From Reclinomonas americana ATCC 50394 (taxonomy: Eukaryota), in the NCBI GenBank assembly GCA_048213135.1, contig PS015032.1, positions 35,838 through 81,553 on the forward strand: a DNA stretch of 45,716 bases, in the 5' to 3' direction. The notes below the pieces were generated by a model that was not told where the DNA came from, did no database searches, and saw nothing but the letters and a program-made list of their open reading frames with translations. Position 1 is the first letter of the stretch, and the number at the start of each line of letters is the position of its first letter. Position numbers and translations under genes: made by a program. Shown here piece after piece: positions 6,001-45,716 of this stretch.

Positions 6001-9000
6001 TTTTTGTGTTCGCGGGAGGAGCAATGCCGTGCACTCGGATTGCAGGTGTGCATCCTCCGCATGAGCTCTTGTCGGTGCCACACTCTGATGGGTTGCGCAG
6101 GGCTGGCGAATTTTGTACGAAATGTGGATGGAGGAGTACATTCATCAGTGCGCGGCACTGAAACGAGATCATAGCCTCTCCAACACGCACCACGCGAGGC
6201 TCCCGAGTGAAGGTCTGTGTAGAGCCACGCAATCAAAGAAGAGCTGCCTTCTTCTCATTCACTGCTGTGCAGCCGAGCGTATGGTCCACGATCTGGTGGT
6301 CGACGGGGGAGTAATGGCGCTGCTGCACGTTCTAGTCGGCTCGCCGGGCTCTGCATCGGAGCAGGAGCGTGCAATTTTGACGTTGAAGAATCTGGCCACG
6401 AATCGTTGCGTGATCGGCGGGTTCCTCCTATTCTCTCATTGCTCACCACGATTGCTGCGCAGGAGAGATTCAGGCCGAGTTGACAACAAAGGCCGCCTCC
6501 GATGCCCTCTCGTACCTGCTGCGCAATGGCGATGAGTTGTTGAAGCTGGCGGTGGCGGACATTATCGCGACAGTCACGCGCAATGGTGCGTCTTGTCCAT
6601 TCATTGCTGACGATGTTGTCTGTCTTCTTCTTCCACTCTTTCTCCTTCTCCGCACCCTGTCTCCTTCTTGTTAGCTGTGCTCATTCACTTCCTTCTCGTC
6701 GCCTCAATAGACGAGCTCGGCCGACAATCCGTCGCCGCCAAGTTTGGTGAATTCGGCTGGTATCTCGTGCAGTCCGTGGATACGGAGCTTGTTGTGCGCG
6801 GTCTCGAGATCTTGCGCAACCTGTCCATACTGCTACATCACAATCGAGGTGAGCATGTGTGCTCAAATGTGTGAGCTCTGTCGTTTAGTCTCACACTAGC
6901 ACCAACGACAGAGTGGGGCGAGTATGATGCGCAAGGCTCGTCGTCGGATGAGCACACCGACGGTTTCGTTGAACGCTGTGAGGTGGTTCTCCTGTGACGG
7001 TGATGCTTACTGTGCTTTTCGTTCTTCAGAGGCCGGCCAAGGCACATGCCCCGCCGACATTCTCACACGCGCGGAGGTTACAAGGACATTGATTCGAGCC
7101 GGCCGCACCATTCACACGGATCAGCGTGTGCAGAGTCACGTGGCGCGGTGTTTCGCGAATATTACGACTGATGGTGAGCGGAATGGGAGGGAAGGAAGAG
7201 GGAAAAGGGAAGAAGGAAAGGATAGGGAGAGAGAAGAGAAATAGTGGAATTGTCGGTAGATTTTGGAGGGAGAGAGGAGTGTGCTTCGTTGGGGAAATAA
7301 GCGGCTGGTGCGAGACAGGAGTGGGTGAGTGAGCGGACAGGATGTGCTTTCGTGAGCAAACCAGTGACGGGTGAGAGTAACGAGTCATGAGCGATAATGG
7401 AGGAGACTTGTGAGCATGTGCATGAGCGAATACAGGGAGAGGTGAACGGTGTATGTGTGAGGTAGCAGTGACCGGTGAGGAGTAACGAGAGAGTGGGTGA
7501 GTGAATCGTTGTGGGTTAGAGTAACGAGAGTGGGTGAGAAGGCAGATAAGATATTTGAGTGACAGAGAGAGAGCGAGAGAGAGAATCGGCGGCGGGTGAG
7601 AGGAATGAGAATGAGTGCATGAAGAGAGATTGGGGAAGGGTACGTGTGTAGCGTATACAGCAGTGAAAGCAGCGGTGTGTTAGAAGAACGAAAGGAGAGA
7701 AGAGCTTGGTCGGTCATTCAGCGGTCTGTGTGTGTGAGAGAGAAAGAGAGTGAGAAAATCAGTGGCGGGTGAGAGGAACGACAGCGGTGGGCGAGAAATG
7801 AGAGCTGCAGAAAAAAAGAGAAGAACTTTTGCTGCGAAACGGTGATCTCACTTCCCCCCCCCCCTTCCCATCCCTTCCCCCCTTCCCCCCTTCCCCCCTC
7901 ATCTCCCCCCTCCCCCCTCCAGTGCTCGACTCCCGCCTGATGAACCAGCTGGCGGAGGACGGCCTGCTGGACTTCCTCATCGAGGCCGCCCTGCTGTACC
8001 AGGAGAATCCCTCTGTGCGACTCGACTTTCGCTTCGACATTATGCGCACGCTCAACCAGTTGTCCACTGACGGTGTGTGCAGCAGATGATGAGATGCGCT
8101 GTTGTTCTCGCCTTTGTCTCACCGCGTTCCCTGTAGAGTCTATCGTCATGCAACTGATCGAAAAGAACGTGGTGGAGGTGTTGCGAAATGTCGTGCAATA
8201 TAGCGACTCCACTGCGCTGGCACAGGCTGCGTCTTGTGTGGAGCGCATGACGGAGCACGGTTGCGTCTCTTGTCCTTCCACCTCTTCCTTCTCCGTGCAT
8301 CAACTGAATATTCTGCGTCGGCCAGCTTCGTGTCGCGGACCCATGCTCGAGCACGGCGCCTTGGAGGCGCTGGGAGTCATGGCGTCGGCCACACAGGCCG
8401 ATATTCAGCGAAATGTCGCGAAGGCGCTCAATGCGCTCTCCGTGTGCGGTGCGTCGAGAGTCCTTGGTGTGGAGGGTGAATCGAGTCACTGACAGTTGAC
8501 TTGCATCACAGGAGAGCACTATGTAAACTACTTTATCACAGACCGCGCTCTGGAGGCACTGGTGCAGCTCGGCCACAGTGCGGAGGATAGTGTTCGCACG
8601 CATGCCGCGGTGGTCTTTTCCAATATTTCGTACCTCTGCAAAGGTACGTCGCTTTGTCTCCGATGTGAGCGAGTCATTTCGCTCACTCATTTCTTCTACG
8701 TGCAGCGAATGCCAAGTGGCGCATTGCCAACATTGCGTTGGAGACGCTGGTCGAGCTGGCCCAGTCGCAGCAGAATCCCACGACGGCGCGTTTTGCAGTC
8801 AAGGCACTGGCCAATCTGACCATGGGTGAGTCCATAGAGGGAAAGGCAGTCGCATTCTGTTGGTCTCTCTGTTGCTTTCACATGCAGTCCATCAGCGTGT
8901 CCACCTATCTTCGCTCTCTTTCTGTATGTCTCCATTCTGTGTGCCTGCCACTGTGTATCTTGCGTCCTGNNNNNNNNNNNNNNNNNNNNNNNNNNNNNNN

Positions 9001-12000
9001 NNNNNNNNNNNNNNNNNNNNNNNNNNNNNNNNNNNNNNNNNNNNNNNNNNNNNNNNNNNNNNNNNNNNNNNNNNNNNNNNNNNNNNNNNNNNNNNNNNNN
9101 NNNNNNNNNNNNNNNNNNNNNNNNNNNNNNNNNNNNNNNNNNNNNNNNNNNNNNNNNNNNNNNNNNNNNNNNNNNNNNNNNNNNNNNNNNNNNNNNNNNN
9201 NNNNNNNNNNNNNNNNNNNNNNNNNNNNNNNNNNNNNNTCCTCCTCCTCCTCCTCCTCCTCCTCCTCCTCCTCCTCCTCCTCCTCCTCCTCCTCCTCCTC
9301 CTCCTCCTCCTCCTCCTCCTCCTCCTCCTCCTCCTCCTCCTCCTCCTCCTCCTCCTCCTCCTCCTCCTCCTCCTCCTCCTCCTCCTCCTCCTCCTCCTCC
9401 TCCTCCTCCTCCTCCTCCTCCTCTCTCTCCCTCTCCCTCTCCCTCTCCCTCTCCCTCCCTTTGCCCGCCATTTTTCCTCACAAATCCTCTCTCCTCCTCC
9501 CTCGGCAGGCCACGGCGACGAAACCAAGATCCGCGTGAAATGCAGCTACGCTGGCCACACCACCATGATGCTCTTGCATCGCAACATTACCTACAGCGAG
9601 CTGATGCACACGATGATCCAGCAGTGCGTTGCCACACTTCTCGCCCGTCCCAGCCATGTCCTTTGTTCCAAACCTCCCCTTTTCCCTTCCTGCCACAGCT
9701 ACGGCTTCGACGACTGGCGGGTGTTTTACTTGGACCTCGACTACCGCGAGTGCCCCATCACCAACGACGACGAAGTGCAGGACTGCATCTTCTACATGGA
9801 CCGCAACGGTCTGGCCAGCATGCGGCTGAATCTGAAAAAGTCGGATGGCATGGGTATCATTCGCTCGCCTGGGGTGAGTCTCCTTGTTGTGAGGGACCCA
9901 TCGCAGCTTTTTATTCACACGCTCCTGCCTGCAGACTTCACATCATCGCTCTCCACTGGCTCCGCACGCCAAGCCGCCGCCCAAGACTTTCCGATGGAAG
10001 CAAAGTTGTGGCCGCGAGCAATTCGTACCGCCTTGCTGCTTTCTGCTGACACCTGCTCGTGCAGTTCAAATGATCGGGCAAGGCGCCTTTGGTCGTGTCT
10101 TCCTAGCACTGAACGAGGACACTGGTGGCTTCATGGCGGTAAAGCAGCTCACGCTGAACAATCTCAAAAATCGGGCGGTTCGTATGTCGCCTCCCCGCGG
10201 TTATTTTATTGTGTGTGTCGCTCACTGACGGCGCACGCGCAGGATGTGCACGTGCTGCAACGCGAAATCAAACTCATGAAGCGACTGGATCACCCGAATG
10301 TCGTGCGCTACCTGGGTACGGAGCGCCGTGGCGATGTGCTCAACATTTTCATGGAGCGCGTTCCCGGTACGTTTCGCCAGTGCACGAGCGGAGCGACAGC
10401 ACCTATTGATCTCACTGTTGTTTGCATAGGTGGTTCTATTCAGGCTCTGTTGAAGCGCACTGGACCATTCGAGGAGAATGTGATTCGCTTGTACATGCGC
10501 CAGATCCTGCAGGGGTTGAAGGTGTGTGGTCCGAGTTTTCGCTTGCGTGTCGCTCTGAGAAGCTCACGATGGCCGCAGTATCTGCACGACAACAATATCA
10601 TCCATCGAGGTAACTCTCGTTCCCATTCTTGCTCCTCACTCAATCCGCTCCTCACCTCATCGTCAACCCTCACGCAGACATCAAGGGTGGCAACGTGCTT
10701 CTCGCCGACGACGGTCGTGCCAAGGTGGAGATTGTGTTCAGATGTGATCAATTGTGGTTGGTTATTGACACTCGTGTGCAGCTGGCCGATTTCGGAGCCT
10801 CCAAGTACATTCGACCTCCGCCTTCGTCGCACCCGCGAGGTATGTCACGCTCCCACTCACTTCCCCAACAGCACTGTCCCTCTCCTCACACCACCCGACC
10901 ACCGACAGCTTCGGCGTCGGCGACAAATCATGACAGTAGCGCCGGCGGTGGCAACGATGACGACAGTGATTTCATTGACCTGTTGCGCACGTCATCACTG
11001 GAGGCTGAGAGTGGCGTGAACTCGGCCACGGAGAGCCCAGTCGGCACGCCACGCCGTCAGTCGCCCACTCGCAATCGTGGAGGAGCGGGTGCTGGTGTGT
11101 CAATTGCTCTGCGCTCCCTCTCTCTTCTCTCTCTCTCTCCGCTCTCGTCCTCCCTCCTCTCTCTCTCTCCCTCTCTCCCTCTCCCTCTCTCTCCCTCCCT
11201 CTCTCTCCCTCTCTCTCTCTCTCATCTCATCTCACCGTCACATGGCAGGTCACACCAGCGAGGGCAACACCAGTCACTCGTTTGTCGGCACGATTGAATT
11301 CATGAGCCCAGAACTGATTCGGCAAGAGTACAATGACACGTGCGTTTTTGCGCATGTCACACCCTCCCTTGTCGCTCATCCTCCTCCACTGACACCTCTG
11401 CTGTGCGCAGCACTCCCGACATTTGGTCGTGTGGCATTCTGTTTTACGAAATGGCGCACGGACACCCGCCTTTCCAGCAGTTCTCCAACGACTTCACCAA
11501 GACGTTCATCATTGCCTCCAACTCCATGCCGGAGCTGACGCTGCCGGCGAACATGTCGAGCGAGGCCCACGACTTTTTCCGCAAGTGCCTCACGCGCGAT
11601 CCACGTGCGCGTCCCACAGCGGGCATGTTGCTCCAGCATCCGTTTGTGCAGGTCGACGAAGATCGCGCCCTGCAGCGGTTCGTATGTCAGTCACCACGCC
11701 ATTGTGTGATGAGACGAGAGTACTGACTGCGAGCGCGTCATTGCAGGGTGCGTGAGAGTGAGAATATTGGTCGCGCGCTGCAGGAGACTCGGCGCACGAA
11801 CCTGAAGGAGATGACAGAACTCACTGGTGTGATCCCATGAGTCTTGCTCGCATCATCGTTGCACTCTCCTTTTCTAATCTCCGTCTCTTTTCGCAGAGGA
11901 TCCCGACTTCCACACTCTGCTGGAAGAGGCGACAGACCGTGCCTTCACTGACATGGAGGCGGCCACAGCGTCTGACGATGAGGATGCCGATGACCTGTGC

Positions 12001-13966
12001 TCCGACGACATGAGTGTGGCCGCGATGAGCGTTGCTTACTCTGCCGATATTGCTGATGCGGTGTTCCCGGTGGTGGTTGGTCCGCGCTCCGGCACCGCCA
12101 CGCCCGACGTGTCCTCGCGGCCGCACACGCCGCTGCACGCCTCAGCGACACAGTCTCGCGCGTTGAATGAGGTCGCTGCTGCTCAAGAGCGCAAAAGGGT
12201 GAGCCAGGCAACACTCGTTCACTTTTCTTTCCCCTTGCTCACCGTTTCCTGCAGGCATCGTCAACCATTGGCTCCTCTCACATGTCGGCCTTCTCGCTGA
12301 CAGAAGAGTCGCCGCTGTCGCTGATGGAGTCATCATTGCCTCTGCCGGGCCGGCATCGTGCGGTTACCACCGTGAATGGCATCCCGCAGGGTCAGTTCTC
12401 GGACGACGGCAAGGCCAGCGAGTCGCCCGTGGAGCGTCTCTCCGACAGTCAGTATGCGGAAAGCCTGGGGTGAGTTGTAGTGAGAACGCTGCTCTTCTCC
12501 CGCCCGTATGCTTCTCACCACCCTCTGCTCAGTTCACCCGACCTGGAATCCAATCCGGACTTCCCACTGCCTCTCCGCCTGCCGCCCGACATGCTGCCGC
12601 CACTGATGGACGGACAGCTGCCGGCGGCCATGATGGACTCGACACAGTCGATGATGAGTTCCGGCTCCAGCTCGTCGTCGTCGGTGGTGTCGCCAGGTGT
12701 GGTTGCCGTGGCGCCGTTGCGTGGTCTGACCACGGGCACGGCTCTCGACGACGCACCGCTGCTGCTGCGCATGGGTCTGCAGGCGGCCTCGTTGCAACAG
12801 TCGCGGCTGGAGATTCGTGTTCCGCAACGCAGCATGCAAGCGCCTCACACAAATCGCCGTCGGTCGCTCTCCACGCAGCGCATGATGCCGTCGTCGCACA
12901 ATTTCGCGCACTCGAATACCGGTGGTGCGTTACTCTGTCACACACACAGAGCCAGCATTGGCGACTTGAAACACAACCTGTTGACCTCCGTTGTTGTTTT
13001 TCTGTAGGTACGCCCGGTGTCGAAGGTCTGCTTGCTCACCACCCCATGGCTCCATCGGTGACCAGCGCGCGGCAGAGTCGACGCAGCTCCGGCACGGCGA
13101 GTTTGGTGCTGCCGCACAGCCAGGTGTCACGCGGCTCGCAGTTGCGACACGGACTCGCCGGCAAGGTCGGTGTGTTGCCGCGCGCGCCTGCAGCCACCAG
13201 TGCACCGGCTCCGGGGGTCAGCACCGGCGGCAGTCCTCACATGCACGCCTCGCCACCAAGTCACGGCTCAGAGGAGCGACGGCGGTTGCGCCCCAGCGGC
13301 AATAGCACCGATGATTTGTCCCGCGCGGGAGGTAACCTTGTGACACTTCCATAACTTGTTTTGTGTGATTGTTGGTCTGAACTGTGCCACAGACATTTTG
13401 CATCTGGACGTGCCGCGCGGCAAGCGGAGTGAATTCACGGGTTCGTTCACCGACGACGCCTCGTCCTATGTTCTCACGATTGGGAGTCTCGATGGAGAGG
13501 ACACGACGGTTTGCATGTCGATTGCGTGACTGTCGTGGTGTGAATCACTGACCTGGCTTTTTTTCTTGTCCAACAGGATGAGGCCACGACTCCGCAGGAT
13601 ACGCAGGGTCCCTCGTTTGCGGGTGCTGAAGACGGCGAGCGTGAACCGACCACCGGCACAGCCACTGGCTCAGGCACTGGTACCGGCACGGATAGTGACG
13701 GCTCGTTGGATTACAAGCGCCGCAATCGCACGCCGCCGACGAGCCAGGGGACCGCAGCTGCGGATGGGATGACGGTTCCAGTGCTCAAGGAGGCCACGGG
13801 CGTGGTGGATGTCGTTGAGGAGGAGGATGAGGAGGAGGAGTTGGATGAGGAAGAAGAGGAGGAGAGTGAGAAGGATGAGGTGGAGGTCCATGTGGAGGTG
13901 ACGGGTGTGGGTGACGATGATGGCGACGGCAATGTGCAGATACCAGCCGCCGTTGAATCATGTTGA
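3014..13966 (+). CDS. ARM-repeat + PB1 + STE11/MEKK-like Ser/Thr kinase (MAP3K-like) with long low-complexity tail; 5' end in gap
   Basis: The spliced product has ARM-like repeats (GGVMALLHVL...AILTLKNLATN; GALEALGVMA...VAKALNALS; ALEALVQLG...AAVVFSNIS; LETLVELA...AVKALANLT). A PB1-like domain follows (IRVKCSYAG...WRVFYLDLDYRECPITNDDEVQ, 9509-9873). Kinase motifs are IGQGAFGRVFLA, MAVKQL, EIKLMKRLDHPNVVRYLG, IFMERVPGGSI, HRDIKGGNVL, DFG, GTIEFMSPE and DIWSCG. Stop TGA ends at 13966. Confidence 0.9.
9239..9421. repeat. (TCC)n microsatellite, intronic
   Basis: Pure trinucleotide run before the acceptor at 9508. Confidence 0.95.
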
Positions 13967-14093: not shown

Positions 14094-17000
14094 TCACACA
14101 ACTCCAGTCTTGTCTTGCAGGTAGCGCAAGTGACGGTTGGCACGAGTGCACGGCGGTGCGTCGACTCCCGGCTGGCCACAGCAGGACCACTACGGCGTGC
14201 AGAATTCAGCAGAGTGCGCCACACGTGAGCGTGACAGCGACGGGCATTACTTACAAACTGCGCACAATACACACAAGGCATCGTTAGCATCAAGACGGTG
14301 CACAACGAACAAGGAAGACGACACGCAACATTCTATGATGCGGACGCAATGGGGCAGGATTAAAGAGAAGGGAGATGAGCTTTGGTAGGTGAGGGAAACA
14401 ACGGGCCGGTGAGTGCGTACCGTCTGCATCAGAGAGCAACATGTGAGAAACAACAATCATAGTGAGTGCAAGAAGCGGATCGTGATGATGCACTCACATA
14501 CTGCGCGGTGTCGCAAGCAGAATGGGAGGGAAGTAGCGATGGTGAGACATGCAGTTGGAGAAGCGGTGCGACATGAGGGCAGAGCAACTCACTCCCGTCT
14601 GCATACGGAGGGGTCATCAGAGAGGAAGAGTGAACAGAGTGGAGCAATCATCGTTGAACACACCAGCTGATTCCAGAAGCCAAGGAGCACGGGAGACGAA
14701 CAATGAGTACAAAAGCGAACTACACAGCAATAAAGACGACAAGAGACAAATGCAGGCATCGAAACCGACCGTCTGCAAAGAGAAGTGTGAGCAATACGAT
14801 GAGCAGCGAGAAACAGCATTCGTCACCAACAAGACGCACATACTGCAGAAACAATGACACAGTGAGCAAAATAACACAACACACGCGGTCAGGAGTGCAC
14901 TCACATTCTACAGGCGCGGCGAGGTGGATCGTCGACACAAAACAGTGAGTTGCCTGCATGTTCACGATTCAATCGACAAGCAGACACACAAACGCACCCC
15001 CTGCAGCTGAAAATCAGCATGCAGAACAACAAAGCAATGACAGCAATGGGACGGGACGCACAAACTGAGAGGATAAGTCGAGCCGCGCACGGAAACTGTG
15101 AGAAAGACAACCGACGTGAAGGAAACGACACTCCACGCTCACCTCCTGCAAAGAGAAACAGTGAGTCATCATCACGAGCACAGTAATCAACAGAAACACT
15201 CCTGCCACGCACTCCCGGATGCCAGTAGCAGTTCGCAGTGTCCACATTGAACGACGACTTGCCGCACCGCTGGCACGTCCATGCCTCGTATTTCAGCGCG
15301 TGCTCCACCAGCGCTTTCCGCTGCGGCGGCCAAGAAATCGAATGAGTCCTTGAAACCAGCATTAGAATTCTTGTAATAGACACACACCTCGGCTTCCTCA
15401 CGCTGTCGCTTCTCCTCCTCTCGTCGACGGTACTCTTCGAGGAGAGCTTCTTGCCGTCTCCGCTGCACCACGAGGCTCTTCAATACACAAAGATCAATGG
15501 AAAAAGTAAACATCGCCCCCGCACCTCATCCTCTTCAGCCCGGCGTCTCCTCTCCTCCTCGGCGTCGCGCTGCGCCTGCTCTTGCAGCTGGCGATGTCGC
15601 GCACGGATGGCTTCGTTGCGCGCTCGCTCCAGTGCATGGCGCTGCTCTTGCAGTCGTTGAATCTCGAGTTGCTGTGTGTGTGCGCATAAACAGTCAGCAG
15701 CACGCTACCTTGTCGCCGCCAGTGCCGCGCAATACAACTCACACGTCTCATGGCATCCTCGCGCTCCACCTGCTCGATAGTCGTGGACACCTCATCCTCC
15801 AGCCGCTTGTTCTCGGCCTCCAAGCGATCGGCCTGCGACCACTCGCGTTACTCACCACCATGCGCACAACAATCTCAGTCTTTCTCTTGCTATGCTCCAT
15901 GACCAACCTCGCTCTTGATCCAGTGCTCCGACTGCCGCTTCAACGCTTCCAAATTCAACTCCATCTTCTTCACCTTGTCGGCCATGCGTCCCTCGAGGTC
16001 CTGGATGGCGAATTCGGCCTGCAGTCTTGCTGTGCGCGCCTCCAGATCCTTTTGTCGCATGTGCATGGCCAGCGCCGTCTCCTATGCACGCACACGCGCG
16101 GTGAGCAGCGCTTCGATAGTCAGCGTGATAGAGTCACGCAACATCGTCCTCCAGCGACTGCAACTCGCTCTTGATGCGCGCCTCCTCCAGCACGAGTTTC
16201 CGACGGCGTTCACGCAACTCCAAGTCTCGCACGGTCTGCTGTCCGACCGCCTCGGGGCGCAAGTCAGTCCGACGATCCGAGTCGAGTTGGCGGAACTGGG
16301 TGTCGACGACGTGGGTGTCAGCGAAGGCGCAGAAGGGGAGGAACACGACGAACAACGCACAGCTTCCTCCAGCCGCACAAGCTCGTGATTGAGCCAGCGG
16401 CACTCCTCGTCCAGCCGATCGCGACGCTCACGCAGGTGGAGATTGCGCTGCATCTTGAGGCGCTCAGTGGTGGCCTCCACCAGCAACAATTCGGCGTTTC
16501 CCAGCAACTCCGAGCGCTGCGCAAGTGCAGTGCAATCAGCAGGGGTAGTGTTAAAGGGGCAGGGGAGGAGAGCGCACCTCTCGCTCCAGCGTCGACATGC
16601 ACTCGGCCTTCAGCCGCTCCACGTGGACTTCGCGATCGCGCAGTTCCTCCACGGTTTTCTCGGCCTGGTGCGAGAGGGAAGGGGGAGGGAATGAGAAGGA
16701 GGAGGAGGAGAAGGAAAGGAGGGAGAGGAGGAGGAGGAGGAGGAGGAGGAGGAGGAGGAGGAGGAGGAGGAGGAGGAAGAGAGAGAAGGAGAGAGAGGAG
16801 GAGAGAGAAGAGAAGAAGGAGAGAGGAAAGAGGGAAGAGGAAGAAGGAGAAGAAGGAGAAGAAGGAGGAGGAGGAGAAGAAGAAGATGAGGAGGAGGAGA
16901 AGAAGAAGAAGAAGAAGGAGGAGAAGAAGAAGAAGAAAAAGAAGAAAAGGAAGAAAAGAAGCAGCAACAGGAGACGATGATGAAGAGGAGGAGGAGGAGG

Positions 17001-17742
17001 AGAAGGAGGAGGACGAGAAGAAAGATGAGGAGAGGGAGGAGGAGGAGAAGAAGACAGACTGGAGAGACGAAGAAGAGAAAGAAGACTGGAAGAGAGGAAG
17101 AAGAAGAGAAACAACAAGAAACCAACAAGAAGAAGAAGAAGATAAAGAAGATGAATGCAGACGACGACGAGGAGTAAGAAAGAGAACAGCCAACACGAGA
17201 GAACAGCGTCAACAAAGAGGGGAAAAAAGGGAGCAGATTTCGATAGCACAGCAGAATCTTCTCTCTCAATCACCCACCTCCACACTGAGACGATCCATGG
17301 CTCCACGCAACCGGCGGAACTCGACATCAATCAGCTCCTGTCGATTCTTCACACTGACATCGACCGCCTGCCACCAAACACGCATGAAATCCCGACCAAA
17401 ACCTCACCAAAAAAAGGGAGAGTAGAAAAAAAACCCGACGCACCGCTTGCTCCAGCACAAGCTTATCCTCAACAGTGCGTTGCGTCTCGTGTTGCAGAAA
17501 CTTGCGCAATTCATACTCATGTCGCGCCTTTGTTTTCACAGGAAAAAGGCACCGGTTTAGTGAGAAAATCAGGGACCGCAAAATGCATTGCAAAACAAGC
17601 GATGAGTAGAGTGATAATAGTGTTTGTGACAGTGTGTAAGTGTGAGTGAGAGTGAGAGAGTGTGTTAGTGTGTGAGAGAGAGTCAGTGTTTGCAAAATAC
17701 CTCTTCATAGAGTGGCGTGTGCGGGAATTGATGCGAGGCCAT
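14094..17742 (-). CDS. Coiled-coil protein with C-terminal Cys/His zinc-finger (Btk/CHORD-like CxxC...CxxHPG...WSCC...C...H) assembled through micro-exons
   Basis: ATG at 17742 (MASHQFPHTPLYEE), followed by E/R/Q/L-rich heptad-like exons that are all phase 0. Exon 15320-15213 ends WTCQRCGKSSFNVDTANCYWHPG. Twelve micro-exons follow, then last exon 14189-14094 (WSCCGQPGVDAPPCTRANRHLRYLQDKTGVV-stop). Confidence 0.8.
14190..15212 (-). other. Array of 12 in-frame micro-exons (11 x 3 nt, 1 x 6 nt) separated by 13 canonical short introns
   Basis: Micro-exons in transcription order: 15145-15143 GAG, 15064-15062 TTT, 15000-14998 GGG, 14907-14905 AAT, 14842-14840 TAT, 14772-14770 ACG, 14666-14664 CTG, 14598-14593 ACGGGA, 14500-14498 TAT, 14423-14421 ACG, 14332-14330 AAT, 14257-14255 TTT. 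Each is flanked by YAG and a GT donor of the type used elsewhere in the window. Confidence 0.85.
16690..17160. repeat. Mixed (GAG)/(GAA) purine low-complexity tract, intronic
   Basis: Lies between two exons (about 17275 and 16664) of the minus-strand coiled-coil gene. Confidence 0.85.
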
Positions 17743-17869: not shown

Positions 17870-19557
17870 ATGAAGGAGAAGATCATTGAGCGGCGTCTCC
17901 CGTGCACGCCGGAGCAGTTGCTGCACACGTACATGTACGACACTGAGTTTAAGGTGAACGTCGCAACGAAAAGACACATGAGGAAAGGCTTGTCTCCTGC
18001 CTCACTGTGTGTGTGGCACACTCAGACTCGTTATCATGAGAGTCGAGGAGAGTATGACATTCAGATTGGCGAGTGGCAAGTGGTGGAACCCGAAGGTCGG
18101 TAACACACACGCACACACACACACACACACACACACTTGTTCACTGCGATGTCACAGGAGAGACGACTTGCACGTGGCGCAGAGACTTGAACTTCACCAA
18201 ACCTCTCAATGTTACGTGCTGTTCTCTCTCTGTGTGTGCGTCTGTATGTGTGTGCTCATTCAGAGCGTGTGCACACAGATGCCCAAGTTCATCATGAAGG
18301 TGCTTGTGAATGATTGATTGATTGCGTTTGCGAAAAGTTCTCACATGTTGTTGTTTTTTCGCAAACAAGATCCTCGGTCGCAGGTTTGCTTGTTGTCGTT
18401 GAGTGTATATGCATCGTGCTGACTGTGTGTGCCACAGCACCTCCACCATTCGCGAAACGTTGCGTCTATTCTTCCTTGTCGCGTTTCGTTATGATCTGTG
18501 CGACTCACTACTCTCTCTGCGCAGGCAACTCGTGGATCCTGAAGGTTGTGTGCTGTCTCTTCTCCTCTGTTCAATGTCTCTATTCTTACTGTGTTCGCAG
18601 GGCTGACGCGCGATCCGTCGACGGTGCTGCATGAGCACGTGATTCAGACGCGATACGATCCCGGCGTCATGTCCAAGTACTTTACCCTCGGCTCCCGGTG
18701 GACCATGCGGGATGTTGCGCTTGTGCACGAGCGGCCTTCTGCGTTTTGTCAGTGTTCTCAACTTGCGACAGGGGAGAGAATCACCCGAAGACCCGCCCTC
18801 CACCCTCTTGCGCGTGTGTGTGCGAGTAAGCTGCAGCATTTTCCTTGTCGGTGGACTCTTTGAGGTCAGTTGGCGCGAGGAAGACGAAGGGGAAAGGGGA
18901 TGCAGCGACAGAGAACCGAGAGCAACAGCGAGAGGGGGNNNNNNNNNNNNNNNNNNNNGAGCGACTGGAGAGGGGGAACGGAGAGCGACAGCGAGAGGGG
19001 GAACGGAGAGCGATAGCGAGAGGGGGAACCGAGAGCAACAGCGAGAGGGAATCCCGAGAGCAACAGCGAGAGGGGGAACCGAGAGCAACAGCGAGAGGGG
19101 GAACCGAGAGCGACAACGAGAGGGGGAACCGCGACTGCATCAGCGAGAGGGGAACTGAGAGCCACAGCGAGAGGGGGAACCGAGGGCGACAGCGAGAGGG
19201 GGAACCGAGAGCAACAGAGAGAGGGGGAACCGAGAGCGACAGCGAGGGGGAACCGAGAGCGTACGTATCGCGTTCCTATTGCCTCTCCTCTCTTCCCCTT
19301 TTCCTTCCCTTACCTTCCCCATTCCCACCCCCTTCCACCTCCACCCTCTGCAGTCCCACCTCGCCAAGATGAGCCGCCAGGGCTCCAACGAAATCATGGA
19401 CGCCTTCGAGGCGCACTTCACCGGCCGCGAGCAGGTGCATCGCACAGCCTCTGCCGACGGCGGCGTCGGCGCAGAAGACGACGAAGAGGTGGCCGACGAT
19501 GCCGTCGACGATACTGTCGTAGCGCAAGCGACAGCCGCGGCCTCCGGATCGCAATAA
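17870..19557 (+). CDS. Small VASt/StART-like lipid-transfer-fold protein, multi-exon with several 14-21 nt exons
   Basis: Spliced: MKEKIIERRLPCTPEQLLHTYMYDTEFK|TRYHESRGEYDIQIGEWQVVEPEG|ETTCTWRRDLNFTKPLN|MPKFIMK|ILGRS|TSTIRET|QLVDPEG|...SKYFTLGSRWTMRD|...LLRVCVRVSCSIFLVGGLFE|SHLAKMSRQGSNEIMDAF...stop 19557. The pattern resembles VASt (Lam/GRAMD1) domains; family assigned by eye. Confidence 0.65.
18905..19260. repeat. About 25-bp minisatellite (GAGAGCAACAGCGAGAGGGGGAACC), intronic
   Basis: More than ten imperfect tandem copies inside the last intron of the VASt-like gene. Confidence 0.9.
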
Positions 19558-29958: not shown

Positions 29959-31849
29959 GTGCAGTGCGATGAGAGCGATTCGAGTTCGTCACAGTCCGAG
30001 AAATGCATTCTTGTTCACCGTCTCACTGCGTGTCTTTTATGCTCAGACATCGCATTCGCCGTCTCAGCAGCGGCGGCGCGTGGGTCTACTCGTGCGTGGG
30101 CGTCTGCATTTGCTGTCGATCGCCAACGACGGCTCGGATGTGGACCTTGTTGGTGAGTTTGTACATCCAGTTGCCGCACACGCACTGTTGTTGCTGATGG
30201 GTGAGTGTAGCCGAGGATTTCGGAACAACCGAGCAGCTGGAGAGTGCGTTCATTCCGGCCATGGCGATGGCCATGCGTCTGCAGTTGGAACGCAGCATGC
30301 CAGAGGCGAGTATAGGTGCCTCCCCATTGCCAACCCTTTCACTGTCGCTCACTGCATTCTTTGATGCTTGCGCAGCCGACGCCAGTGGAGTCTCGCTTGT
30401 CACGGCTGGAGTACCTGCGCAAGGGATTCCGCATTCCAGTGCCCGCCTTTGACACCACTTTCCTCGACTTCCCTTATGCTATTCCCGGGTGGGAGTTACC
30501 AAGTATGCTCAATTTTCTCTTACGTTTACCTATTCTGTATGTCGCCCTCAAACCCTCTTTTCCTCTCGCTCTCCAACAGGTCCGACCCTGCCAGACGAGT
30601 TCCCCTCGTTCAGCATGCGAGACAACAACAACAATACGACTTCTCATCAACCTATCGTTGTCCGAGCCGCTGTGGAGCGCTGCATGGAGGAACCAGAGGT
30701 GCGTATAGATAGTCAACTTTGGAATTCCGCAAGTTTTCTTACCTCTCCGCGTGCATCGCGAAGCTCATCGCCTGGTACTTTGTGGTGCGTCACTCACTCG
30801 CAAGAAGAGCTTGCCGTGTGTCACTGTCTCCTCACCATTGTACGTAGCCACCCTCCACCGTGCACGAGCGCTTCTTGCCACCACCATTGCCGCCACCGCC
30901 CGAGTGGGCAGGCGATGTCGATGGACTCGTTTCCCTTCGCTTGCCTGGACCCTTCGAGCGCATGCGCTATCGACATCCGCAGCCGGCTCCAGCACCTGTG
31001 CAGCGCGGCTTCATCATGAACTCGGGTCGCGGAGAACCGCCGCTTGTCGAGTGCACCGTGTGCGGATCGCGATTTGTGCGCGCCCATCCACCGCCGCCAC
31101 TCGGTCCGCGAGTGCGCATTCTCATTGCGGCGTGGTGCGGTGATGTGGAACGCGAGGCGCGTGACAATGTGCGCCAGACGTGGATGCGCTACCGCAACGT
31201 GTACCACGCACAGCACAACCCGCACGGCTCACTACAAGTGATCTTTGTGATGGGTCGTCCTCGCTCCGCCGCCACGCGGCAGGCGCTGCACGAGGAGTAC
31301 TTGCAGTACGGTGACATGGCGCTCCTCGACATCCGCGAGAACATTTACAACGGAAAGAACCTGGAGTGGTCAAAAATGGCGCACGACACGTACGGGCGCA
31401 GCCAGACGCTGCGGTACGTTGGGCGAGTGGACGTGGACGTGTTCTTCCGTCCTCTGAAGATGGAACACGAGTTGCGACGGCTTCCGCGTGAGCGTCTGCT
31501 GTGGGGACATACCATCTTTGGGTACCGTGGACGGCGGATGTTTGAGTACCCTCTCGGGCCGGCGTACTTTGTCAGCTGGGATCTGGTGGTGTTCCTGCGC
31601 CGCACGACTTCAATCTCGGCAGTCGACCGGATGGGAAGCGAGGACTGCGGCTTCACGCACTACTTTGTCAAGTCCGACCTGCCGGTGCACTTGGCCTCCG
31701 ACATGCGGTTCCACGATCTCCAGGGCCACCGCCGTGGCCTGTTTGTCGAACCAACGACCGACAAGTCCATCAACATTCATCGTGTGCGCGACCTGGCGCA
31801 GCTGCAAATGTTTATGCAGCGCTTCCCTGACGGGTTGTACGCTGTTTGA
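29569..31849 (+). CDS. GT31-family (beta-1,3-galactosyltransferase-like) glycosyltransferase, tandem copy A
   Basis: Hydrophobic N-terminus (MARSLPLALLLLLLLVACLVTVKA). Last exon has ARDNVRQTW, VIFVMGRP, LHEEYLQYGDM, a DxD motif (RVDVDVF), EYPLGPAYFVSWDLV and SEDC. Confidence 0.8.
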
Positions 31850-33452: not shown

Positions 33453-34765
33453 CTCTCTCTCTCTCTCCCTCCCTCCCTCCCTCCCTCTCCAACAGGTCCG
33501 ACGCTGCCTGACGAGTTGCCCTCATTCGGCATTCGCGACCACAATCCAATCACCGGCGCCCATCAGCCAGCAGTCGTTCGTGCCGCCGCGGAGCGCTGTG
33601 CGCACGAACCAGAGGTGCGTACCCGATCCCCAGCTTTTTTCAACTTCTGTGAGAATTCTCATCTCTCCCGTGCCGCACACAGCTCATCGCCTGGTACTTT
33701 GTGGTGCGTCACTCACTCGCAAGAAGAGCTCGCCGTGTGTCACTGTCTCCTCACCTTTGTACGTAGCCACCATCCACCGTGCACGAGCGCTTCTTGCCAC
33801 CGCCATTACCGCCGCCGCCCGAGTGGGCAGGCGATGTCGATGGACTCGTATCACTTCGCTTGCCTGGACCCTTCGAGCGCATGCGCTATCGCCACCCGCA
33901 GCCGGCTCCAGCACCTGTGCAGCGCGGCTTCATCATGAACTCGGGTCGCGGAGAGCCGCCGCTTGTCGAGTGCACCGTGTGCGGATCGCGATTTGTGCGC
34001 GCCCACCCGCCACCGCCACTCGGTCCGCGAGTGCGCATCCTCATTGCGGCTTGGTGCGGCGACGTGGAACGCGAGGCGCGTGACAATGTGCGCCAGACGT
34101 GGATGCGCTACAGCAACGTGTACCACGCACAGCACAACCCGCACGGCTCACTACAAGTGATCTTTGTGATGGGCCGTCCTCGCTCTGCCGCCACGCGGCA
34201 GGCGCTGCACGAGGAGTACCTACAGTACGGTGACATGGCGCTCCTCGACATCCGCGAGAACATTTACAACGGAAAGAACCTGGAGTGGTCAATCATGGCG
34301 CACGACACGTACGGGCACAGCCAGACGCTGCGGTACGTTGGGCGAGTGGACGTGGACGTGTTCTTCCGTCCTCTGAAGATGGAACGCGAGTTGCGACGGC
34401 TTCCACGCGAGCGCCTGCTGTGGGGACATACCATCTTTGGGTATCGTGGACGGCGGCTATTCGAGTACCCTCTCGGGCCGGCGTACTTTGTCAGCTGGGA
34501 TCTGGTGGTGTTCCTGCGTCGCACGACATCAATCTCGGCAGTCGACCGGATGGGAAGCGAGGACTGTGGCTTCGCACACTACTTTGTCAAGTCTGACCTG
34601 CCGGTGCACTTGGCCTCCGACATGCGGTTCCACGATCTGCAGGGCCACCCCAGAGGCCACTTTGCGGAGCCGACAACTGACGAGACAATCAGCATTCATC
34701 GTGTGCGCGGTCGGGTGCATCATGACTTCATGGAGCGTTTCCCTGACGGGTTGTACGCTGTTTAG
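31974..34765 (+). CDS. GT31-family glycosyltransferase, tandem copy B
   Basis: Same exon structure and motifs as copy A; catalytic exon nearly identical to A. Confidence 0.8.
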
Positions 34766-34858: not shown

Positions 34859-37832
34859 ATGCAACTACCGCGGAGAGCGGTGGTGGCACGCGTCGCTGTC
34901 TCGTTTCTCATTCTCAGTGCCCTCTTTCTCCTCGTTGCGACATGCCTCGTCACTGCCAGCGCAGTGACGATCGATGAGCTGGAGGAGGCGCGTCGGCAAG
35001 GCGTGCACGAACTGGAAGTGGAGATGAGGGGCTGGATTGCAGGCGTGGACATCCCAGTGCTTGTGCTTGTGTCGTGGAGAGACCCAGCTATCAGAACCCT
35101 CCAACAAGCAGGTACGCATTGAGCGCGGAAGATGTTGGCGGCAATCAATGTCTTTCCTCTCTCTTCTCTCTCTCTCTCTCTGTCTCTCTCTCTCTCTCTC
35201 TCTGCACGTCGCTTTCTCTTTCTCTCTGTGCACATCTCTCTTTCTCGTGATTCCTCTGGAAAGCTGGGATGCGATGCAGCAATCTGTCTCACATCTCGCT
35301 GTCTGTTGCCTTGCATGCAAACCGGTTCAGTCGAGCAAGCCGTCGGCAAGGGCGACATCGTGGTGAGTCCACCGCGACAGCGTCAAGTGATGAGTCAGCT
35401 GCAGCTCGCTCTGATGGAGAAGGGCCTGTGGGGCCCGTCCAGCTGGCGACAGTTCGTGCCATTCTCGTCCACAATGCGACCGGTGAGTGTCTCGCCACGC
35501 AGCATTTGGTGTCTGTTCTTCTGCTGGATGTTTGCATGCACGTTGTCTTTGTTGTTCTTCCTCTTTCCTCTTTCCTCTTTCCTCTTTCCTCTTTCCTCTT
35601 CTTCTCTCAATCTCTCACTCTCTCTCTCTCTCTCTCTCCCCGCTGCGGTGCGACGAGGGCTGTGTGGTGCGTTTCCATGGGAGACGGAGAGATGTGCAGA
35701 GAGGGAGGGAGAGCGGGGTTCATTCGCTCATCTTCTCAACTTGATCCACTCTTGACAGCCGCCTCGGCCTGCTCCTCTGCCGCGCCGACGAGTTGGCCTG
35801 CTCGTTCGTGGACGCCTGTACTTGCTGTCGGTCGCTGCTGACGGCTCGGATGTAAGCCTTGTCGGTGAGTTTGCACATCCTGTTGCCGCACACGCACGTT
35901 GTTGCTGAAGTGTGTGTGCAGCCGAGGATTTCGCCAGAGCTGAACAGCTGGAAAGCGTATTCATTCCGGCCATGGCAATGGCCATGCGTCTGCAGTTGGA
36001 ACGCAACATGCCTGAGGCGAGTGGTTGTGCATGCCACTCCATTGCCAACCCCTCCTCCGTCTCTCAATGCACCCTTTGCTCTCTCATGCAGCCGAAGCCA
36101 ATCAAGTTTGGGTTGTCACGACTGGAGTACCTTCTCAAGGGATTCCGCATTCCAGTACCCGCCTTTAACACCTCGTTCCTTGCCNNNNNNNNNNNNNNNN
36201 NNNNNNNNNNNNNNNNNNNNNNNNNNNNNNNNNNNNNNNNNNNNNNNNNNNNNNNNNNNNNNNNNNNNNNNNNNNNNNNNNNNNNNNNNNNNNNNNNNNN
36301 NNNNNNNNNNNNNNNNNNNNNNNNNNNNNNNNNNNNNNNNNNNNNNNNNNNNNNNNNNNNNNNNNNNNNNNNNNNNNNNNNNNNNNNNNNNNNNNNNNNN
36401 NNNNNNNNNNNNNNNNNNNNNNNNNNNNNNNNNNNNNNNNNNNNNNNNNNNNNNNNNNNNNNNNNNNNNNNNNNNNNNNNNNNNNNNNNNNNNNNNNNNN
36501 NNNNNNNNNNNNNNNNNNNNNNNNNNNNNNNNNNNNNNNNNNNNNNNNNNNNNNNNNNNNNNNNNNNNNNNNNNNNNNNNNNNNNNNNNNNNNNNNNNNN
36601 NNNNNNNNNNNNNNNNNNNNNNNNNNNNNNNNNNNNNNNNNNNNNNNNNNNNNNNNNNNNNNNNNNNNNNNNNNGGCCATTACCTCTCACTCGCGTGCTA
36701 TGGTTTCTGATCGCCCTCTGTGTCCGTACAGCTCATCGCCTGGTACTTTGTGGTGCGTCACTCACTTGCACCAGATTACCAAACCATGCATGTTCCTTCC
36801 TCTCTCCTTACCCTTGTCCATGCACGGCACGCGCAGCCACCCTCCGCCGTGCACGAGCGATACTTGCCACCACCACTGCCGCCACCGCCCGAGTGGTCGG
36901 GCGATGTGGACGGACTGGTTTCACTTCGCTTGCCTGGACCCTTCGAGCGCATGCGGTATCGTCGCCCACAACCGGCTGCGGCATCGGTAAGGACTGGATT
37001 CATCATGGACTCGGGCCGTGGAGAACCGCCACTTGTGGAGTGCACCGTGTGCGGCTCGCGATTCGTGCGCGCCCACCCACCGCCACCACTTGGTCCGCGA
37101 GTGCGAACTGTTGTGGGTGCCTTGTGCGTCGATCTGGATCGTGAGGCGCGTGATCGCATGCGCCAGACGTGGATGCGCTACAGCAACGTGTATCATGCGC
37201 AGCACAACCCGCACGGCTCGCTGCAAGTGATCTTTGTGATGGGTCGTCCTCGCTCTGCCGCCACGCGGCAGGCACTGCACGACGAGTTCCTGCAACACGG
37301 TGACATGGCGTTCCTCGACATCCACGAGAACGTACACAACGGCAAGAACCTGGAGTGGCTGTTTATGGTGTACGACGCTTACGGGCACAACCAGATGGTG
37401 CGGTACGTTGGGCGCGTGGACATGGACGTGTTCCTTCGACCGGTGAAGATGGAGCGCGAGCTGCGACGACTTCCGCGCGAGCGTCTGCTGTGGGCGCACA
37501 CGATTCTCGGGTACCGTGGTCGACGGTTATTCGAGTATCCTCTCGGGCCGGCGTACTTTGTCAGCTGGGATCTGGTGGTGTTCCTGCGTCGCACAACATC
37601 AATATCGGCAGTCGACCGGATGGGAGCCGACGACTGTGCGGTGGGATACTACTTTGCGAACTCCGACCTGCCGGTGCACATGGCTTCCGACATGCGGTTC
37701 CACGATCTCCAGGGCCACAAAAAGTCGCTCTTCGAGGAGCCCACAACCGACGAGTCCATCAACATTCATCGGGTGTCCGATCTGCCGCAGCTGCAGGCAT
37801 TCATGGAGCGTTTTCCGGACGGGGTGTGGTGA
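34859..37832 (+). CDS. GT31-family glycosyltransferase, tandem copy C (internal gap)
   Basis: Same exon structure; DxD is RVDMDVF and the SEDC motif reads ADDC. Confidence 0.8.
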
Positions 37833-37941: not shown

Positions 37942-42195
<4,254 letters not shown>

Positions 42196-44463: not shown

Positions 44464-45716
44464 ATGGCTGACGCAGAGATCGGCCAACGCCTCGCCTCGC
44501 GACTCGGGCACAACGGTTCGTACCACCTCACACACACACCCACACCAGAGCACGCATGCATCCGCGACAGCAGACGTCCAGAAAACAGTGTGAAAGTTGT
44601 TGATGCACATTCACATCAACGACCTGCACCACACACACTTTTTTCCTCCCCCGCCGCCTGCTCATCTCCGTGACACAACAGAGCGCGAGGAACGCGATGC
44701 AGCAGTGAAAGCGCTCTTCCAGATGTTCCAAAAGGTCGACTCGATGACCGACGCCGAGATGCTGGTGATCTGGAAGGGCCTCTTCTATGGTGAGTCCTCT
44801 TCTCTCTCTCTTTCTCTCTCCCTCGCCTCTTGCCACCCTCCTCTCTCTCTCTCTCTCCATCACAGTTTCCTTCTCTCTCTTTTGTTTTCCTCCTGTCAGC
44901 TTCACTTCTCTAGGACTTCCTCTCTTTGTTTCTCCTCCCTCTCCCTCTCCCCCCTTCTCACCCCCTCCCTCCCTCACCTGCCCTCAGCCATGTGGTTCTC
45001 CGACGGAGTCCCCGTCCAACGCGAGCTCGCCCAGCGCATGGCCCAGCTGATGCATGCATTCCCGACACTGGAGCTGACCATGCGCTTCGCGGAGACATTC
45101 ATGCTGACCATGCAACGCGAATGGCCGCGACTGGACCACCTGCGTCTGGACAAGTACTACCACCTGGTGGAGTGTGTGGTGCGGGAGCTCTTGTCGCTGG
45201 TGTGCACGGCCGAGGAGACCTTCCGCGAGCAGCAAGATGGTGATGATGACGAGGGGGATCGTCAGCTGAACCCGGTGGCTGTCGATGTGGCCAATCTGTT
45301 GTACGAGCACGTGTTCCGCGCCACGGCTGAGCCGCTGCGTAGTGATGTGGAGGATGCTGCGTTGGTGGTAAATGGCGACGAGGAGGCGGAGGAAGCCGTC
45401 GTCGATGACGACGAGGATGAGGAAGAGGAATACGACGATGAAGTTGAGGAGGAGGAGGAGGAGGAGGAGCAGCCGAAGAAGAACAAGAACAAGAACAAGG
45501 GCAAGAAGGGCAAGAAGGGCAAGCGTGGCACCTCTGACGAAGGTTTGTTGCTGCAGCATCCACTTGCTCCTCCACCACCGCCATCTCACTGTGTGTGCTC
45601 AGAGGCCGAGCAAGGCTTGAGTCGCGCCCAGATGCGTCAGCTGACGAAGCAACGCATTGCCGCCAAGCGCAGACAACGCAAAGTGGTGAGCGACTTTCTA
45701 ATCCATTCCCGCGATT
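44464..45716 (+). CDS. RRP1: Ribosomal RNA processing protein 1 (Nop52 family), 3' end beyond window
   Basis: MADAEIGQRLASRLGHN|ERE.RDAAVKAL...IWKGLFY|AMWFSDGVPVQRELA...TMQREWPRLDHLRLDKYYHLV matches the conserved Rrp1/Nop52 N-terminal motifs. Confidence 0.9.

Follow-up and report, generated by a model that had tools for sequence, protein, structure and literature searches.

In a 45,716-nt stretch of the Reclinomonas americana ATCC 50394 genome (contig PS015032.1, positions 35,838 to 81,553; "the window", to which all coordinates below refer), we analysed a gene whose predicted C-terminal zinc finger is interrupted by a dense array of apparent introns. On the minus strand, the 1,023 nt from 15212 to 14190 tile exactly into 13 GT-AG introns and 12 tiny exons; the exons are 3 nt long in eleven cases and 6 nt in one, each within the size limit for micro-exons (≤30 nt). 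We favour, with moderate confidence, the reading that the array consists of 13 genuine short spliceosomal introns which are removed singly, while the 12 tiny exons enter the mRNA, mostly constitutively. That most of the array codons are present in the mRNA is, judged from the sequence, likely.

A dozen putative micro-exons between 13 predicted introns

The exact tiling, the exon sizes and the uniform phase had been described in an original prediction made from the letters of the sequence, and cutting the sequence by the predicted intron lengths reproduced them. Each array intron carries GT at its 5' end (13/13) and either CAG (10) or TAG (3) at its 3' end. All are phase 0, and none of the micro-exons is a stop codon. 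The frame is open from the preceding exon (15320..15213) through the array and the following exon (14189..14094) to a TGA at 14096..14094. The thirteen array codons specify Thr three times, Tyr, Asn, Phe and Gly twice each, and Glu and Leu once. Upstream, from an ATG at 17742 to position 15213, the gene comprises 11 exons with a 1,206-nt open frame and 10 introns (173, 76, 613, 61, 65, 61, 75, 71, 62 and 67 nt), so that the micro-exons account for 39 of about 1,340 coding nucleotides. The array introns measure 61–103 nt; eight of the ten upstream introns fall between 61 and 76 nt, which bears out the predicted "usual" intron size. The features of the gene, all on the minus strand, are as follows.

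14094..17742, minus: whole inferred gene, from the ATG at 17742 through 11 ordinary exons and the array to the last exon, whose stop lies at 14096..14094
15213..15320, minus: exon 11, 108 nt, 36 aa, first half of the putative zinc finger (C-x2-C, then C-x2-H, then PG)
15146..15212, minus: intron 1, 67 nt, GTGCGT...CAG; CTCAC 16 nt from the 3' end (distances below likewise)
15143..15145, minus: micro-exon 1, 3 nt, Glu (this and the following micro-exons from the tiling)
15065..15142, minus: intron 2, 78 nt, GTGAGC...CAG; CTCAC at 34; length divisible by three, without in-frame stop
15062..15064, minus: micro-exon 2, 3 nt, Phe
15001..15061, minus: intron 3, 61 nt, GTGCGT...CAG; CTGAT at 13
14998..15000, minus: micro-exon 3, 3 nt, Gly; the strict filter described below also admits alternative donors lying 4, 8 and 12 nt downstream
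14908..14997, minus: intron 4, 90 nt, GTGCGT...TAG; CTCAC at 38; in-frame stop at codon 12
14905..14907, minus: micro-exon 4, 3 nt, Asn
14843..14904, minus: intron 5, 62 nt, GTGAGT...CAG; CTCAC at 20
14840..14842, minus: micro-exon 5, 3 nt, Tyr
14773..14839, minus: intron 6, 67 nt, GTGCGT...CAG; CTCAC at 15
14770..14772, minus: micro-exon 6, 3 nt, Thr
14667..14769, minus: intron 7, 103 nt, the longest of the array, GTCGGT...CAG; CTCAT at 37
14664..14666, minus: micro-exon 7, 3 nt, Leu
14599..14663, minus: intron 8, 65 nt, GTGTGT...CAG; CTGAT at 18
14593..14598, minus: micro-exon 8, 6 nt, Thr and Gly, the sole two-codon exon
14501..14592, minus: intron 9, 92 nt, GTGAGT...CAG; CTCAC at 42
14498..14500, minus: micro-exon 9, 3 nt, Tyr
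14424..14497, minus: intron 10, 74 nt, GTGAGT...CAG; CTCAC at 20 and 39
14421..14423, minus: micro-exon 10, 3 nt, Thr
14333..14420, minus: intron 11, 88 nt, GTACGC...TAG; CTCAT at 43
14330..14332, minus: micro-exon 11, 3 nt, Asn
14258..14329, minus: intron 12, 72 nt, GTTGCG...CAG; CTAAC at 26
14255..14257, minus: micro-exon 12, 3 nt, Phe
14190..14254, minus: intron 13, 65 nt, GTAAGT...TAG; CTCAC at 36
14094..14189, minus: last exon, 31 codons and TGA, second half of the putative finger (starts WSCC; C after 9 residues, H after 5 more)

To characterize the 13 segments we used the ten upstream introns of the same gene as the control set. A G at donor position +5 was present in 12/13 array introns versus 8/10 controls. 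The branch-like motifs that had been predicted are there: a CTNAY motif 8–50 nt from the 3' end occurs in 13/13 array introns, versus 7/10 controls and 30% of 5,000 shuffled introns. The pyrimidine share of the last 20 nt lies between 0.60 and 0.75 in the array (0.35–0.90 in the controls), and the base composition is that of the neighbouring introns (T 35% and A 13% in the array; T 31% and A 18% in the controls) rather than of coding sequence (G 36%, T 15%). An unusual donor hexamer, GTTGCG, is shared between array intron 12 and upstream control intron 6. Thus each of the 13 segments carries the full local intron signature, predicted to be of the U2-type GT-AG class.

As a mere GT..AG tiling would be no great surprise where intron lengths are flexible, several chance controls were run. 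The original prediction had called for a genome scan for YAG-NNN-GT arrays, which we applied to this window. Of the 13 minus-strand matches to YAG-NNN-GTRNG in its 45.7 kb, nine lie inside the 1-kb array; the plus strand has 12 matches, none of them inside it. We further searched by dynamic programming for chains of GT..YAG introns of 55–110 nt joined by stop-free exons of 3 or 6 nt. Started at 15212, this search retraced the predicted first 12 introns exactly; for the 13th it took a later acceptor, a chance run-on through the coding last exon. Outside the array the longest chain on either strand of the window was 4. Among 1,000 dinucleotide shuffles of the region the longest chains ranged from 1 to 5 (5 once only), versus the observed 13, and of two long introns of the window, used as controls, the 613-nt one gave a chain of 1 and that of about 748 nt a chain of 3.

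In a stricter search, exons of 0–15 nt were permitted, and each intron needed a local-type donor, a CTNAY motif, a pyrimidine-rich tail and a YAG acceptor. Every one of the 12 micro-exons was recovered at 3 or 6 nt, with a few alternative donors at two junctions additionally giving 7, 11, 12 or 15 nt. The remaining window yielded four distinct sites only, with candidate exons of 0–11 nt, none of them 3 or 6. The array pattern is therefore far beyond chance.

The micro-exons also differ in composition from what surrounds them. Compared with their introns they are rich in A (11/39 versus 13%, P=0.010) and poor in C (4/39 versus 28%, P=0.007), and the codons for Phe, Asn and Tyr end in T in 6/6 cases versus 8/22 in the large exons (Fisher P=0.016). 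Because their composition departs from both introns and large exons, the micro-exons look like a class of their own, in which the positions that define the amino acid would be selected and third positions would be intron-like. Eleven of the 13 introns would break the frame if retained: ten because their length is not divisible by three, and the 90-nt intron through an in-frame stop. The other two, of 78 nt and 72 nt, are divisible by three and contain no in-frame stop. The open frames of the array region matched no Pfam family on either strand.

Two further features of the gene model were observed. The upstream exons all have lengths that are multiples of three (42, 84, 90, 87, 156, 153, 174, 90, 147, 75 and 108 nt), and 23/23 introns of the whole gene are phase 0, the ten upstream ones included. 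A kinase gene nearby, read by eye, mixes phase-1 and phase-0 introns, so the all-phase-0 pattern is not a genome-wide rule. The window contains 14 runs of N (20–671 nt), which mark the assembly as a draft scaffold; none lies in or near the array.

A putative zinc finger at the end of a predicted coiled-coil protein

The exons on either side of the array hold the two halves of one Cys/His motif, with HPG ending the upstream exon and WSCC opening the downstream one, and neither half has another partner nearby. The 402 residues upstream are coiled-coil-like and rich in Glu, Arg and Leu; by eye, the N-terminus and body of the product show no obvious signal peptide. The predicted product would thus be a coiled-coil protein of about 446 residues with a finger at its C-terminus.

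Pfam scans were run on the exon fragments separately, in unspliced form. The last exon matched the BTK family (PF00779) with E=0.035 and 14.4 bits, below the 24-bit cut-off, its residues 1–18 aligning with profile positions 12–29 of 30. In the nearest Atlas cluster of this exon (score 0.88, 202/256 features common), 13% of the members carry BTK. We take both the profile match and the cluster as leads, not as membership. For exon 11 the scan gave a weak, zinc-ribbon-like match to Ribosomal_L37e, which at 20.6 bits (E=4.7e-4) falls short of the 27.6-bit cut-off. Neither finger fragment matched CHORD (PF04968) at E values up to 10, and the nine other ordinary exons gave sub-threshold coiled-coil matches only. 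The finger had been predicted to be "Btk/CHORD-like". Its BTK part finds weak, sub-threshold backing, while CHORD, with no Pfam match, rests on the spacing of Cys and His only.

If the array is spliced as drawn, the product would carry an insert of 13 residues, rich in Thr, Tyr, Asn, Phe and Gly, between HPG and WSCC. The distance from H to CC is 17 with all thirteen codons and 4 with none. The corresponding spacings are, we assume, 10 in BTK and 14 in CHORD; on these values, inclusion of most codons suits a finger of the BTK/CHORD type better than a direct join. The original prediction had the array codons fill the loop between HPG and WxCC. The zinc-finger context is supported by HPG and WSCC in the flanking exons and by the weak BTK match, but simple loop filling is not: 13 residues exceed the profile. 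Since the W of the last exon falls on position 12 of 30 in the BTK profile, the codons would extend a canonical loop rather than merely fill it.

Like the BTK finger and CHORD, the spliced gene would encode HPG, then W-x-CC, then a C after 9 residues, and its eight Cys/His would follow the order C-C-C-H...C-C-C-H, which we take to be that of CHORD. Unlike BTK or CHORD proteins, it encodes neither a PH domain nor a CS domain, and its finger ends a coiled-coil protein. No paper connecting the CHORD and BTK motifs was found in the literature searched.

Relatives of the finger were sought in several ways. A word-index search with exon 11 and a few flanking codons gave no match among proteins of 75–2,000 aa. 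phmmer searches with the 36 aa of exon 11 against 1.84 billion representatives returned five matches at E values up to 0.001; these are multi-stretch zinc-ribbon repeats, none of which combines HPG with W-x-CC, and we do not regard them as relatives. A metagenome scan produced one locus (L001), whose translation is an unrelated C-x2-C peptide. Among solved structures only weak matches were obtained, to generic zinc ribbons and a lectin repeat, and the Atlas search with exon 11 likewise led to generic zinc ribbons only (≤0.80).

Splicing and origin of the array

The introns of this organism are short (about 57–100 nt) and are thus probably recognised across the intron. We propose that each array intron would be recognised as one unit comprising donor, CTNAY branch motif, pyrimidine tract and YAG acceptor, and that the codon between two introns would simply be carried along and fused onto the growing exon at each removal. 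As only 3 nt separate an acceptor from the next donor, simultaneous engagement of neighbours is improbable, and neighbouring introns would probably be removed in turn. The process would be akin to recursive splicing, with each step leaving a 3-nt in-frame footprint. Were a donor now and then paired with the next-but-one acceptor, one codon would be lost in frame. Splicing at all 26 sites, the order of removal and constitutive inclusion are what we infer from these features.

Several points weigh against this reading, which is drawn from genomic sequence alone. An acceptor and a donor 3 nt apart should impede each other, and the exon-side donor context of the micro-exons is poorer (the base before the donor is T in 7/12 micro-exons, but G in 7/11 large exons). 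The window has other introns as long as 613 nt and about 750 nt, and a single intron of 1,023 nt is hence not impossible. The BTK match of the last exon stays below its cut-off, a loop with all 13 residues exceeds the space that the BTK profile leaves before its W, and the sequence searches found no homologues of the finger.

The strongest competing explanation, though still an improbable one, is that the whole 1,023 nt are removed. The inner sites would then only shorten a long intron stepwise, in a nested or recursive fashion, or would be bypassed, and HPG would be joined to WSCC with none or few of the codons kept. Long introns are probably hard for a machinery tuned to 60–100 nt, and in animals long introns can be removed stepwise. 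After removal of introns 2–12 the remainder would measure 171 nt, much like the 173-nt upstream intron. With four possible zinc ligands in exon 11 and four in the last exon, a direct join would also not be obviously non-functional. However, nothing would then keep 12 spacers at multiples of three, and their A-rich, C-poor composition relative to the introns would be left without cause. None of the spacers starts with GT, so that a regenerated donor for discarding them is not available. No such subdivision is seen in the two other long introns of the window, and the resulting H-to-CC distance of 4 residues is far below what the BTK profile implies.

Another possibility, which we regard as unlikely, is that the micro-exons are real but skipped in many combinations, so that one gene would give rise to zinc fingers with loops varying in length and sequence. 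Every array exon is a multiple of three, and any subset could therefore be skipped in frame. Pairing a donor with the next-but-one acceptor would create introns of about 125–200 nt, a size that the 173-nt upstream intron shows to be tolerated. A precedent is offered by the micro-exon genes of Schistosoma, in which proteins are varied through differential splicing of short symmetric exons. Against this, the DNA bears no sign of regulation: at both ends the array introns have splice sites at least as strong as those of the upstream introns, which look constitutive. Skipping is, moreover, expected to be rare where short introns are recognised as units. A role in surface diversity, as the original prediction had suggested, would also sit oddly with a cytoplasmic-looking coiled-coil protein that by eye carries no sign of secretion or surface exposure. 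We prefer the extreme constitutive arrangement, which the same prediction had named as its alternative, over combinatorial skipping. The array is very unlikely to be a splicing-based generator of diversity, in which neighbouring introns would compete for overlapping sites and each transcript would carry a different subset.

Equally remote is a 3' end that is non-functional as drawn, the pattern being the historical trace of a decaying or unexpressed remnant, or of a transcript that ends within the array: the finger has no detected homologues and the scaffold is of draft quality, although none of the 14 N runs of the window falls in the region. The array has, however, lost none of its 26 splice sites or 13 branch-like motifs, its frame is open, and the last exon preserves its Cys/His pattern, features that unselected sequence would not retain.

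With regard to origin, 13 of the 14 codon boundaries in and around the 39-nt stretch would, in the array as drawn, be occupied by introns, which calls for very local gain or for duplication of a unit. Tandem Repeats Finder (TRF) detected no tandem repeats in the array region, and the direct repeats there are splice junctions only. Local alignments among the 13 intron cores scored 14.6 on average, versus 13.1 for shuffled cores (SD 2.5), with a maximum of 22 versus 28. Introner elements, transposon-derived introns that multiply in a genome, would explain many gains in a small space; unlike these, the array introns show no mutual similarity beyond chance. With intron cores no more alike than shuffles and no tandem repeat, a recent duplication or an introner family is unsupported. 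Some codons recur (Tyr followed by Thr twice, Asn twice, Phe twice), which is compatible with an ancient duplication of "codon plus intron" units but is weak evidence for it. If the array grew by repeated duplication of such units, it may represent an undescribed way of lengthening a loop one residue at a time. Alternatively, it may have originated by twelve separate intron gains within 39 nt.

The surrounding window

The third intron of the array gene (16665-17277, minus, 613 nt) is of low complexity and almost pure C+T (C 42%, T 47%), with no internal chain of introns. In another gene, a purine-rich intron (about 7173-7922, plus; about 750 nt) repeats a degenerate motif of the GGTGAG-AGTAACGAG type, which produces a local cluster of cag-NNNNNN-gtgag matches with a chain of only 3. 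Downstream of the array gene, an acidic-tailed open frame on the plus strand ends at 13966, 127 nt from the stop of the array gene at 14094-14096. A gap this small between convergent stops implies very short or overlapping 3' ends.

The nearby kinase gene (9241-11016 and onward, plus) encodes PB1 and protein kinase domains; by eye, its introns measure about 57–68 nt and carry CTCAC-type motifs. Tandem copies of a roughly 27-nt unit (ggttccccctctcgctgt...) occupy 18900-19270, broken by a 20-N gap. A tandem family of galactosyltransferase open frames (Galactosyl_T) lies on the plus strand at 30848-31846, 33767-34762, 36711-37829 and 40939-42192. Three of these frames were scanned and gave E values of 2e-12 to 4e-14, and the copies at 33767 and 30848 are identical in their first 40 residues; a word-index search with a galactosyltransferase open reading frame found no homologue. 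A Nop52 domain (rRNA processing, E=8e-27) is encoded by an open frame at 44594-45715 (plus), for which the best database matches are distant animal and plant proteins with 39–48% identity over about 15–20% of the query. No Rfam families or tRNAs were found in the window DNA searched.

Comparison with known micro-exon systems

Full-text literature searches on 3-nt exons, consecutive or tandem micro-exons, closely spaced introns and shortest exons turned up no such array. Isolated micro-exons of 1–15 nt in plants and animals share with it tiny coding exons, ordinary GT-AG introns and strong donors, and standard aligners and annotators miss them, according to excerpts of two papers (PMC8831610, PMC11096116). 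The same excerpts describe 1-nt exons of APC11 and VPS55 in plants, and adjacent exons of 5 nt and 12 nt in a peptidase M1 gene (PMC8831610, PMC11096116). In RPS24, three micro-exons of 3, 18 and 22 bp are mentioned in abstracts. In these sources isolated micro-exons thus occur as one, or two to three in a row, whereas the array presented here has twelve in a row, eleven of them single-codon, with short introns throughout. A curious parallel to its one-codon exons exists in RAR1, a CHORD-domain gene of plants, which is reported to have a 3-bp second exon in peanut and Arabidopsis (PMC8430224).

The micro-exon genes of Schistosoma, as portrayed in PMC10526429, have exons of 3–81 bp and long introns of up to 5 kb, and encode secreted proteins. 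Runs of short, frame-keeping exons, down to 3 bp, are common to them and to the array (PMC10526429). In contrast, the micro-exons of these genes make up most of a small secreted protein, whereas in the array gene they contribute 13 of about 446 residues, within a finger; the Schistosoma introns reach 5 kb, as against 61–103 nt here, where nearly all exons are 3 nt. The array gene is thus not of the Schistosoma type, in which coding sequence is mostly micro-exonic, introns are long and the product is secreted. Kinship in sequence between the two is not expected.

In recursive (ratchet-point) splicing, an acceptor is directly followed by a donor, and the intron is removed piecewise via a zero-length exon that leaves no trace. 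Piecewise removal in which order matters would be common to both, but the array differs in that 3 or 6 nt stay, in frame, at each step. Its acceptors do not abut its donors, 3 or 6 nt lying between AG and GT at 12/12 junctions, and the strict search returned no zero-length junctions in the array region.

Should splicing proceed as drawn, no other run of single-codon exons found in the literature searched would come near the array in length. The spliceosome would then cope with thirteen introns whose acceptors and donors sit 3 nt apart, and the forced order of removal would offer a natural setting in which to study how adjacent splice sites compete sterically. Both gene predictors and RNA-seq aligners would get such a gene wrong, truncating or breaking its zinc finger, so that similar arrays could lie unnoticed in other poorly sampled eukaryotes. 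Compared with the systems described so far, the array would be an extreme form of micro-exon structure, far beyond any run found in the literature searched.

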